The notes below the pieces were generated by a model. That model was given only the letters and a program-made list of their open reading frames with translations. It was not told the DNA's origin and did no database searches. From assembly GCA_020137815.1 (NCBI GenBank), contig CM035350.1, positions 9,424,001-9,488,000 of the forward strand: a stretch of DNA of 64,000 nt, written 5' to 3'. Position numbers and translations under genes: made by a program. Shown piece after piece: positions 12,775 to 24,602 of this stretch (within the stretch, counting starts at the first letter, position 1; the number at the start of each line of letters is the position of its first letter). This DNA comes from Hormiphora californensis. Lineage: Eukaryota; Animalia; Ctenophora.

Positions 12775-15700
12775 TTAACTATCATCCATTCCACCCTCCT
12801 GCTTCACCCCCATTAAACTGTCGCAGATCAATATTAACTCGCGCTCCGAACTCTCCTGAAGAAAAAGAGATCGTTAAAAATAATAATAAAATGAACATTT
12901 GATGCTTATATCATTGTCGTGGGACCTACTCCTAAGTTTCCTATAGAAAACAAGAATGCATAGTATTATTTACCTTGTCCAGGAATTTTGAGTGCCATGA
13001 TTTACTTTCCAGCTCCAACCGCTTGATTTGAGCCTCCATCATAACCTTCTCTTTCTCATACTCGACACTGGTCATCTCTATCTTACTGTTGGCTCTGTAT
13101 TTGAGAGGGGGTTAGAATCATGATATATACCATTCAGGAGAAAATAAGAACTGGATAATGAATTATAGCGTGCCTAAAACTATAAATTGCAACTTACGCT
13201 TCAAGTTTGCTCTCGCATTCCTCTTTCAGTGCTTTGATGTTGTCCTCAGAGGTGTTCAGATCGGCCATGTATCCCCTGATCTTCTCCTCTAACTCGTCCT
13301 CTCGCTGGAAAGAAGGGGGTGAGAACAATATATGGGTTGGTGTATACACGCCAACAGTTTTGTTTGGGTTCGCCCACGATTAGGAAGGAGGGGGTCCCCT
13401 TGCTAATTCCCATCCCCCACACCTACCATTCTCATTTGGTTGATGATCTCCCTGGCCCTATCGTATCTCTTGTGAAGGTCGGACATTGCAGAGTGCATGA
13501 CATCAATCTCCTTATGGAAACTGGTATTGTCTGCTGACAGTTTAGCAATCTGCTTCTTTAGCAGTTCCTCATTTTTCCGTTTCGATGTCATTAACCGTTC
13601 TCCGTACTCATTGTTCAGGCTCATTAGCACTTTCAGGTTCTGCAGGTTGAAGGGATGTTTCATTACAGGTTTCAAAGACATGATCTGTCGGCGGATCAAT
13701 AGGCACAATGACAGGGAAATGTGGAACATTTTGGGGTCCAAGACTGTAAGGGAAGGTTGTTATCTTTTTCATTTCAACTCACCCCTTCCACAGATTCATC
13801 CTTAGAGACGGACCCCATCTCAATAAGACTCTGACACTCGGCTTTCAAACTGATGATCTCCTGTGCTTTGCTCTCCGCGATGTCCTCTATACCCTTTTTC
13901 TCTAGGGACCACTGTAACAACAAGAGGGGGTTAGATAGGGGAAGGGGATATTCTCTCTTTCACAGGGAAACAGGCGAAGAGATGGGGCTGTGTGGAGGGC
14001 TGTGTTCATGCAACGAAAATGATTGGAAACATGCACCACAGCTATGTGATGAAACTCTATGTTGTTGAGCTGTCACTTCACTTACACCCCCTCCCTATAA
14101 TACTAAATTAGTAAAACAGCTATAATTATGGGGTTTCATGCAATTGTTAGCGGGTTAGATTTGCTACACGACACATAAGGCACGATTTATTAGCGAATTA
14201 CACATTGCTGGCTCCAGTGGGCTGCTAAATGGGATTCTAGCTGCACATTGCACTGGATGGTGTAGCTCTGGTTGCACATGTATGATGAAGCCACATTGCA
14301 TATTGTACACAGTTCAATGTATGTTACACTGCACATGCCACAATAGCTGATAGCTGATGGTGGTTCACATGTTCCACATGCCACACTGCAGTACACATGC
14401 CACAATAGCTGATGATGATGGCTCTACCTTGTCTGACTCTTCCCTCCTGGCCCTATCAACCAGGCCCTGTACTTCCGACTCGCTGTACCGCTGTGTGGTG
14501 TATTACACATGTGAACTTAGGTTAACACATGAACTTAGGTTATTATGTAACACATGAACTAAGGGTTTCACAGATACACTGACACGGACTAACAAGGGAC
14601 AGTCAGATGTAAAAATGAGACAGATAATTGAGCAATATTCCTGTTGAAACGGAACTACTACTACAGTATGTGTAAACTGAATAAACAGACAAAATGACAG
14701 AAAAACAGTCAAATACGGCAACAGAAGGGAACAGATAAGAATAACAAACAGATGAAAAGTTGTCAACAGAAAAACATAATCCACTATTATACCTTGTCTG
14801 TTGTCGTGTTTTGTTCCTTGTTTACACTATCATAGTCCGACCTTTGGGGAGGAAAATATGGTCAAATTATGGAGAGATGGAGATGGAGGGGAGCCGGGCA
14901 GGTCGGTAGAACTTCGACAGAATTTAGGGTAGGTCAATTTAGGGTAGGTCTGAATTTAGGGTAGGTCTGAATTTAGGGTAGGTCTGAATTTAGGGTAGGT
15001 CTGAATTTAGAGTAGGTCTGAATTTAGGGTAGGTCTGAATTTAGGGTAGGTCTGAATTTAAGGTAGGTCTGTAATGTATCGTTTATCAAAGCATTGCAAT
15101 TCGATATTAGGGTTCTGATTAGGTCGCTGAACCGCGTCCCGTACCTCGTATCAACTCATTTCAATTCGATCTTAGTCACCGATTAGGTCGCTGAACCACG
15201 TCCCGTATCTCGTGTCAACTCATTGAAATTCGAGGTTAGACACAAATTAGGTTCCTGAAACACGTCCCGTATCTCGTATCAACTCATTTCAATTCGATCT
15301 CTCACCGACACTAAGTACTACTTAAAGTAGGTGAACTGAGTTAGGTCGGTAGACTGTATTCCGTATCGCATCAAATGAAATTAGGACTGTTTGACTGTTC
15401 ACTAATTAGTTTATCCACGTAGACTTTAAAGTAAGAGTGGCGCGCCGTGTTTTCTCACAAAACTTAGTGGATGAACGGGGAGTACCACCAGGACCATTGG
15501 TACGGTATCGAAAATTTGAAATAATGAACATATTACGTCATAACTAATGAACGAGACAGAATTAGAAATTTTCGATACCATACCAATGGTCCTGGTGGTA
15601 CTCCTCGTTCATCCACTAAGTTTTGTGAGAAAACACGGCGTGCCACTCTTACTTTAAAAGTTTCAATTCGATCTTAGTCACCGATTGGGTCGCTGAACAG

Positions 15701-23585: not shown

Positions 23586-24602
23586 GACTTTCACAACACA
23601 GCAATACTAGTATATTGACAAGGGAGATAATGCGAGCTAGAGAAAGAGAGAATGGTTTAATTTGGTTAGTGCACTAATTAGGCAAGCAGCAGTTCGAGAG
23701 AGAGAGAAGTCAGAAAGTCAGGGAGAGAGGGGAATGGATAAATTGTAGAGGAGAGAGAGAGAGAGAGAAGTCAGAAAGTCAGGGAGAGAGGGGAATGGAT
23801 AAATTGTAGAGGAGAGAGAGAGAGAGAGAGAGAGAGAGAGAGAGAGAGAAGAGAGAAGAGAGAGAGAGAGAGAGAGAGAGAGAGAGAGAGAGAAAGGGAG
23901 ACAGGGAAAAGAGGGATAGGAGCAAGGTTGAGACGAGGTTGTTTCTGCAACCGTATTCGCTTTGCTAATGCATTCTGCAAATTTAGTGGAAGGTGGAATT
24001 ACAGGGCACTATAATATAGCATCCTGCAATGGAAAGAGGGGCAACCATTCCTGTAAGCGGGGGTATAACAACAATAGAGAGAGGTTTCAACACAAACTCA
24101 CACAGTACACTGATACAGCTGAAGTGAGAGTGTGTGTGTTTGCGTGTGTTGCAGTACACTATTAAGCTATTAGAATAGCCGTGACTCAAAATATATAAAC
24201 CATATTTAAATTTCTCTTTTTCCTGTTTCTCAGTGTCGTGTCTTCTTTCTCTCCTCCCTTTTTTCTATTTATCCCGGTTTCGTCAGGGCTAGTTTATACC
24301 ACAATTCAGCGTCATATAGCGCCTTATTGGCTGCAGTTAACCACATGTCAGTAAGGTGGTACACTTATATTTTACAGCAGCATAAATCCGGGGCATGTGT
24401 GTAACTTAGGCTACATTGCCCGGTAGAAGCCTGATAAACGCCCACCCCTGTTGAATTCTCGTGGAGGCTTATCAGGGTAACTATAGAGACACATCTAGTG
24501 GTGCAGAAATATCACATATTGAACATTCCAATCCCAACCCGCTGAACCAATTTCTTCCCAATCTCCCAGGCCCAGTCACAACCTTAACCCCTTGTCAGCG
24601 CC

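Follow-up and report, generated by a model that had tools for sequence, protein, structure and literature searches.

Proteins of the TACC family (TACC1-3, D-TACC, TAC-1 and Alp7; PF05010) carry a C-terminal TACC coiled coil, and their N-termini are mostly disordered. The TACC domain of TACC3 has been described as a parallel dimer that binds ch-TOG (PMC11921806). In mouse Tacc2, a 5.1-kb alternative exon separates the Tacc2l form from Tacc2s (PMC3327670), and major TACC2 mRNAs of 4.2 and 9.7 kb have been reported (PMC5658375). The 64,000-nucleotide stretch considered here, from Hormiphora californensis (GCA_020137815.1, contig CM035350.1, positions 9,424,001 to 9,488,000; hereafter the window), holds on its minus strand a gene that ends in the same coiled coil. 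Judging from the exon models, a giant open reading frame (ORF) built of octapeptide repeats sits in intron 3 of this otherwise ordinary ctenophore TACC gene. The repeat ORF exists as described, is under selection and has an unusual predicted structure. The chances are judged slightly better than even that it is an alternative first coding exon, spliced from 18380 to the shared TACC exons, and that it yields a minor isoform of 2,039 amino acids in which one screw-like rod keeps a basic head at a large distance from the TACC coiled coil. As with Tacc2l, a giant alternative exon (5.2 kb) likely distinguishes long from short isoforms of the window gene. For Tacc2 the exon is given as an internal cassette, whereas that of the window is more likely an alternative first coding exon; no homology is implied, and the two giant exons are likely convergent. 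Unlike the TACC family at large, the predicted long isoform of the window bears 1,600 amino acids of regular folded repeat.

The second described system to which the locus can be compared is the alpha-helical screw, reported in a preprint of late 2025 as an almost unseen super-secondary structure that is most frequent for 8-residue repeats, with an apolar core, S/T/D/N helix N-caps, proline at position N1, a superhelix of 2.5-4 units per turn and only one natural example in the PDB, 7QLR (bioRxiv 10.64898/2025.12.04.691947). HeliScrew4 (PDB 9ZEM) is a screw of 120 residues obtained by design. The entry 7QLR is presumably the structure of phage CDHS-1 Gp22, a protein described with a superhelix. 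The repeat units of the window share with HeliScrew4 and 7QLR the period of 8, the S/T/D/N N-cap, the frequent proline at the helix start and the apolar core. Unlike the HeliScrew4 design, the window array is natural, apparently intracellular, of animal origin and 200 units long.

The repeat frame: extent, age and selection

The giant ORF runs from 23606 to 18351 on the minus strand and comprises 1751 amino acids from stop to stop, or 1744 counted from the ATG at 23585. An earlier note on this stretch had given it 1747 amino acids, a length that fits a GTG start, and a basic head of about 105 residues. The head measures 108 residues and is written in an alphabet of A, G, R, T, S, P, K, V and M only. 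When the protein was segmented freely, with units of 4-13 residues permitted, 201 units were returned, every one 8 residues long and every one distinct. The initial unit serves as a lead-in, and the 200 core units cover residues 117-1716 with zero register breaks, as the same note had described for about 200 octapeptides in diverged DNA. The autocorrelation of the protein at lag 8 is 0.31, compared with approximately 0.05 at other lags. A hydrophobic residue occupies unit position 1 in 196/200 units, position 5 in 179/200 (T, C and A included) and position 6 in 199/200; an S/T/D/N N-cap is present in 117/200 units and proline at position 2 or 3 in 111/200. Charge is zoned along the array, which is mostly acidic and turns basic in its final 20 units. 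Identity between units at four-fold third codon positions is 0.28, which is near saturation, and no higher-order duplication within the array rises above shuffled units (best 38/80 versus 34-40 in 20 shuffles). Therefore, the array is old and its register has been retained.

The state of selection was read from X1, a single sequencing run of a relative that is 14-20% diverged from the window and is represented by contigs only. One X1 contig of 634 nucleotides is colinear with positions 21286-21656 within the repeat (at 80% identity). Of the 32 listed differences, 28 fall at third codon positions (p 3e-10; three more rows lie beyond those listed), and over 45 codons 29 of the 30 changed codons are synonymous. 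Because of this synonymous excess, the repeat exon is taken from the alignment to have an orthologue in the X1 relative and to be under purifying selection, in line with the earlier description of the repeat as old and selected. No X1 contig covers the giant exon at 85% identity, and gaps in cover are not evidence; neither end of the exon is covered by a contig. It is extremely improbable that the ORF is non-functional or derived from a mobile element. Such an origin would suit the repeat-rich window and the presence of comparable octapeptides in bacteria, fungi and crustaceans that are unrelated, but neither a stop nor a break of register interrupts the 5.2 kb although synonymous sites are saturated, the purifying selection seen against X1 already contradicts it, and none of the 5 Pfam families matched by the whole ORF at an expectation value (E) up to 1 is a transposase or reverse transcriptase (0/5). 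A possible likeness of the repeat to ubiquitin-binding UBM motifs was set aside, with no Pfam support in the ORF scan or among 25 of the 26 families matched by 12 segments.

Predicted fold and similar repeats in other proteins

In the PDB, the best sequence match of the repeat is the designed HeliScrew4, with E 0.0045 for one segment and 6.3e-13 for a profile (best of 95). The AlphaFold2 model of 128 amino acids, built together with 11 sister segments, reached a predicted local distance difference test score (pLDDT) of 93.3 and contains 16 helices of 4-5 residues with a period of 8, one per unit. The regular helical repeat expected by the earlier note is thus present in the model, but the predicted fold is better described as an 8-residue alpha-helical screw than as the conventional alpha-solenoid proposed there. 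Foldseek searches of the PDB and viral libraries with the repeat model gave no match at E up to 0.001, and 9ZEM and 7QLR are not among the matches listed in three PDB fold searches with it. The best fold matches were mesothelin (E 0.046, template modelling score 0.38) and beta-catenin (Z 6.5, root-mean-square deviation 3.7, 128 aligned), the likeness being only that of superhelices in general. The 16 units overlay approximately 215 residues of beta-catenin, about 5 armadillo repeats. From this overlay and the rise of the armadillo repeat, a rise of about 0.3 nm per unit may be estimated, which would give a rod of roughly 55-70 nm.

Repeats of this kind are not confined to the window. A HMMER search with the last 1,040 amino acids of the ORF against 1.84 billion representatives returned 395 matches at E up to 0.001, and the best 150 of them show 16-54% identity over the matched stretches. 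Among these 150, the longest in-register run comprises 85 units, compared with 200 in the window; no orthologous repeat protein is apparent, a profile of ctenophore TACC proteins matches 0/150, and no vertebrate TACC was recognised. ALTTAQ repeats of bacterial-type proteins were found in 14 of the 25 high-ranking matches scanned, often beside Ig-like, fn3 or protease domains, and the matches looked up by name (21) include fungal and crustacean proteins. The ALTTAQ repeat (Pfam PF20080) has the same period and core pattern as that of the window; the window ORF itself does not match PF20080, which is absent from the 5 families of the whole-ORF scan and from 25 of the 26 families of the 12 segments. 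A word-indexed search with the ORF gave two matches among 7,979 candidates of 963-3,065 amino acids, a protein of Amanita rubescens and its near-copy, and no match among 7,994 shorter candidates. In a metagenome scan, three loci were rejected, as their best segments match only the low-complexity head. The octapeptide repeat type is widespread and has probably arisen repeatedly, and the arrays found (in P0002 and P0018-P0166) indicate that natural alpha-helical screws are probably far commoner than the single PDB example suggests. What is new here is the length of the array and its TACC context, not the repeat type. No orthologous repeat protein was found among the predicted proteins searched, RefSeq Bolinopsis proteins included; the lack of a ctenophore orthologue among predicted proteins suggests that the exon is either lineage-restricted or missed by annotation in other ctenophores.

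The host TACC gene and the splice to the repeat

The features of the locus are collected in Table 1. The note had recognised the nine small downstream exons and missed three upstream coding exons (29317-24815). Exon e1 most likely extends over 18013-17898 and ends at GTAAGT, as the proteins of relatives align through the whole exon. The Pfam check proposed in the note gave the expected family: e6 alone matches PF05010 with E 8.2e-6 and 26.1 bits, slightly below the cut-off of 29.9, and the two relatives scanned, P0005 and P0009, exceed it with 62.6 and 64.8 bits; the other four of the five TACC exons scanned had no Pfam match. A search with the e6 protein, which spanned lengths of 126-2,000 amino acids and would therefore leave a 2,039-residue isoform outside its range, found 8 proteins: 6 full-length TACCs (364-413 amino acids, among them Bolinopsis microptera XP_063674765.1), 1 genomic fragment and 1 C-terminal fragment. 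With 7/8 of these the identity over e6 is 61-65%. The short form of the window gene, without the giant exon, has an open frame of 365 amino acids (344 without e4) and is 39-43% identical to the six full-length relatives (E 1e-78 to 1e-89), which would place the gene in ctenophores.

Table 1. Coordinates of the repeat ORF and of the TACC exon models within the window, in order of transcription
Feature	Positions	Strand	Remarks
TACC exon U1	29275..29317	-	carries ATG of usual short form; acceptor-like CTAAC...TAG 2 nt upstream
TACC exon U2	24981..25039	-	aligned with N-termini of relatives
TACC exon U3	24815..24896	-	FDSRTFAR motif common to relatives; phase-1 donor
Strong 3' splice site (CTAAC branch-like motif, pyrimidine tract, TAG)	23637..23681	-	51 nt upstream of ATG 23585
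Basic A/G/R/T/S/P-rich head, 108 aa	23262..23585	-	net +20 over first 100 aa; likely disordered
Octapeptide array, 200 in-register units	18438..23237	-	L-[D/P/S]-[P/x]-x-h-h-[E/x]-[K/Q/T]; predicted alpha-helical screw
Tail of giant exon	18380..18437	-	predicted capping helix; ends at phase-1 donor
GTGAGT donor	18374..18379	-	first GTRAGT after 5.2 kb; copies at 18354 and 18329 in G/T-rich tandem unit
Stop of unspliced ORF	18351..18353	-	9 codons past donor
TACC exon e1	17898..18013	-	phase-1 acceptor
TACC exon e2	17717..17751	-	basis: frame and splice sites only
TACC exon e3	14793..14841	-	also loose end of X1 contig, read by eye
TACC exon e4	14428..14490	-	63-nt symmetric cassette; skipped in some relatives
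TACC exon e5	13783..13911	-	
TACC exon e6	13427..13639	-	TACC_C coiled coil; Pfam PF05010
TACC exon e7	13198..13304	-	
TACC exon e8	12974..13094	-	in spliced X1 contig
TACC exon e9	12775..12855	-	with stop

Further observations concern the host gene itself. Exon e4, immediately ahead of the coiled coil, is a small alternative exon that is conserved: 4/6 full-length relatives have it, and 2/6 as well as an X1 contig lack it. All six full-length relatives (P0004, P0005, P0007-P0010) have in the linker an SRIP motif of the SxIP type, a possible EB1-binding site, and its aligned place in window exon e1 reads SHLP. The basic head lacks an SxIP motif, though the short TACC forms of the relatives have one. 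The e2-e3 intron contains, at 14900-16400, a large inverted-repeat arrangement enclosing short tandem units that by eye resembles a miniature inverted-repeat transposable element.

In X1 contigs, e7, e8 and e9 are spliced together, and loose contig ends read by eye connect e3 with e5. Upstream of e5 the contig extends for 399 nucleotides, compared with the 384 nucleotides that e3, e2, e1, U3, U2 and U1 would supply, and so fits the short form. Because the six full-length relatives lack the repeat and the length of this contig fits the form that skips it, the giant-repeat product does not appear to be the main product of the gene. The note had presented the giant form as the product, and in this respect its account did not hold, the ordinary product being the one of 365 residues. 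The repeat form would be a minor isoform. The depth in X1 is 5.7 for the repeat contig and 129-176 for the TACC contigs, although depth is not a sound measure for ranking.

The splice that would join the repeat to the TACC exons is indicated by the end of the ORF. Over the 5,206 nucleotides of the coding strand GTRAGT is not seen, compared with 2.5 expected, and the first one stands where the exon ends and shares the phase of e1; for such a site to occur within 60 nucleotides and in phase, the chance is about 0.01. Across the donor, the fraction of C drops from 0.22 to 0.02, the sequence beyond being G/T-rich, and the last 9 codons of the unspliced ORF derive from this intron-like tandem repeat. 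Neither AATAAA nor ATTAAA was found between the donor and e1. The frame joined from 18380 to 18013 and through the nine small exons is open, with no stop before that of TACC. The path drawn by the earlier note from GTGAGT 18379 to the TACC domain was therefore confirmed in its open frame and in the TACC_C match of e6, while the junction itself occurs in no read or contig. At 3580-4260 on the plus strand, about 9 tandem copies of a short exon, each with the splice sites on its two sides, resemble the triplicated donor at 18379-18329.

Several results weigh against the alternative-exon reading, and some of them would suit its main rival, a nested stand-alone gene. Such a gene would lie parallel and intronless in TACC intron 3, end at the stop at 18351 and encode 1,744 amino acids of basic head and screw without a TACC domain. 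The octapeptide repeat is absent from all 6/6 full-length TACC relatives, and no 18380/18013 junction was seen in X1 (one run, contigs only). In one ctenophore genome 2,357 nested genes are reported, and many of these run parallel to their host gene (PMC8527503). The ORF has an acceptor and ATG of its own, and an AATAAG at 18301 could end a stand-alone transcript. The donor at 18379 scores just 4.5, tied 14th-15th of 319 GTs with a matrix made of the gene's own donors. Also unfavourable to the reading are that the X1 repeat contig is intronless and hence possibly DNA, that X1 pieces enter the comparison only from 80% identity upwards, which biases it to the most conserved repeat stretch, and that the single-sequence model of 400 amino acids, which ends in a capping helix, is weaker (pLDDT 69, predicted template modelling score 0.39) and leaves the continuous rod a prediction. 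However, a nested gene leaves to chance the sole GTRAGT placed at the ORF end and in e1 phase, and it would take its final 9 codons from an intron-like G/T-rich tandem repeat with no canonical polyadenylation hexamer before e1. It is held unlikely, and the model of an alternative 5' end remains the most economical.

How a transcript with such a 5' end would begin is suggested by the acceptor at 23636, which scores 7.6 and ranks among the best 3% of 1121 AGs; in leave-one-out scoring, the 11 acceptors of the gene itself span -2.2 to 9.8. Because U2 or U3 spliced onto it meets an early stop, this site is likely an acceptor for a 5' untranslated region or a spliced leader, and ATG 23585 is the first ATG beyond it. 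In a ctenophore, at least 56% of Iso-Seq reads are reported to carry spliced leaders (PMC8527503); no spliced-leader copy was found within the window. An acceptor-like AG followed by CT stands a few bases before the ATG of first coding exons at 29319 (minus strand), 23636 (minus strand) and about 36004 (plus strand), as expected of spliced-leader or 5' untranslated acceptors. The giant exon might instead be an internal cassette between U3 and e1, entered from U3 at the AAAG of 23587 and giving about 2,100 amino acids. The exon 23587-18380 is symmetric (phase 1-1, 5,208 nucleotides), the whole frame is open and the mouse Tacc2l exon offers a precedent (PMC3327670), but the 23587 acceptor scores -8.1, with 69% of the region's AGs as good or better, and a much stronger acceptor 49 nucleotides upstream sends U2 or U3 to an early stop. 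A cassette is accordingly considered very unlikely.

Possible role of the long isoform and meaning for ctenophores

If the repeat ORF does serve as an alternative first coding exon, its transcript would start at the 23636 acceptor through an internal promoter or spliced-leader trans-splicing, with translation from ATG 23585, and use of the 18380/18013 junction would give a long isoform of 2,039 amino acids and 224 kDa. The 200 octapeptides would fold into one alpha-helical screw rod, and the TACC domain, as in other TACCs, may dimerise and bind ch-TOG/XMAP215. Two rods would then run as a pair from the basic heads to the ch-TOG-binding coiled coil, and the heads may bind a microtubule or other polyanion. 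In this way the long isoform could act, in a restricted cell type, as a strut or tether that sets TACC-ch-TOG at a fixed distance from a microtubule or centrosomal anchor; a rod or spacer function is what we infer from the predicted architecture. In a bolder form, which is held unlikely, a ctenophore lineage would have joined to a TACC dimer an alpha-helical screw of 200 units, longer than any other known in nature, as a ruler of about 100 nm that is switched on by a spliced leader at the intron-3 acceptor, and in some specialised type of cell the paired rods would set the spacing of arrays of microtubules or basal bodies. With the same long isoform, the screw may instead be a position-specific binding scaffold that recruits partners along its surface rather than a passive spacer. 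All 201 units are distinct, with no higher-order duplication above shuffles, the charge is zoned from acidic over most of the array to basic in its last 20 units, and 44/45 codons show no listed amino-acid change in the X1 relative, but the X1 stretch compared owes its selection to the 80% cut-off, and on either side of it conservation is lower (6/10 and 6/7 residues, by eye). A scaffold role is judged quite unlikely.

The earlier note had pointed to comb plates or basal bodies and to CTENO64 and CTENO189, and this link found no support. CTENO189 and CTENO64, which belong to the compartmenting lamella of the comb plate, are large, lineage-specific ctenophore proteins like that of the window. 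CTENO189, however, is described with 1,582 amino acids, a metalloprotease domain and two death domains (10.1101/2022.03.27.486007), features that Pfam matched neither in the ORF nor in any of the five TACC exons scanned, and the word TACC occurs 0 times in the main text of that paper. CTENO64, compared by name only, would have about 64 kDa, against 224 kDa for the window long form. No orthologous repeat protein was found, RefSeq Bolinopsis included, though comb plates are common to all ctenophores. Literature searches on TACC, ctenophores, helical screws and octapeptides found no published description of a giant TACC exon of this kind, and among the matches listed for ctenophores with TACC there was no mention of ctenophores.

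The remainder of the window contains several other loci. At 36000-47200 on the plus strand, in head-to-head orientation to TACC, there is a gene for a tyrosine kinase (Pfam PK_Tyr_Ser-Thr) that by eye resembles FAK. Three intronless ORFs of 261-402 amino acids stand between the two genes at 29973-34257 on the minus strand; by eye, two resemble coiled-coil proteins of the long interspersed nuclear element ORF1 type, and one has a 10-residue acidic repeat. A rhodopsin-family receptor (7tm_1) with stretches that by eye are cysteine-rich and LDL-receptor-like is found at 51044-54469 on the minus strand, spread over several frames and stops, and is possibly frameshifted or a pseudogene. The segment 39000-40650 is homopolymer-rich and of low-quality appearance, probably an assembly artefact from poor reads.

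Taken as a whole, the repeat ORF represents a natural predicted screw of animal origin that is under selection, and its 200 units exceed more than twofold the longest unbroken run found in the best 150 of the 395 matches. The array offers a direct test of whether a screw forms long stiff rods and for what cellular use. If the splice to the TACC exons is true, a TACC gene has gained a giant alternative exon independently of vertebrate TACC2, in this case one that is predicted to be folded, and the locus would point to an undescribed microtubule strut in ctenophores.

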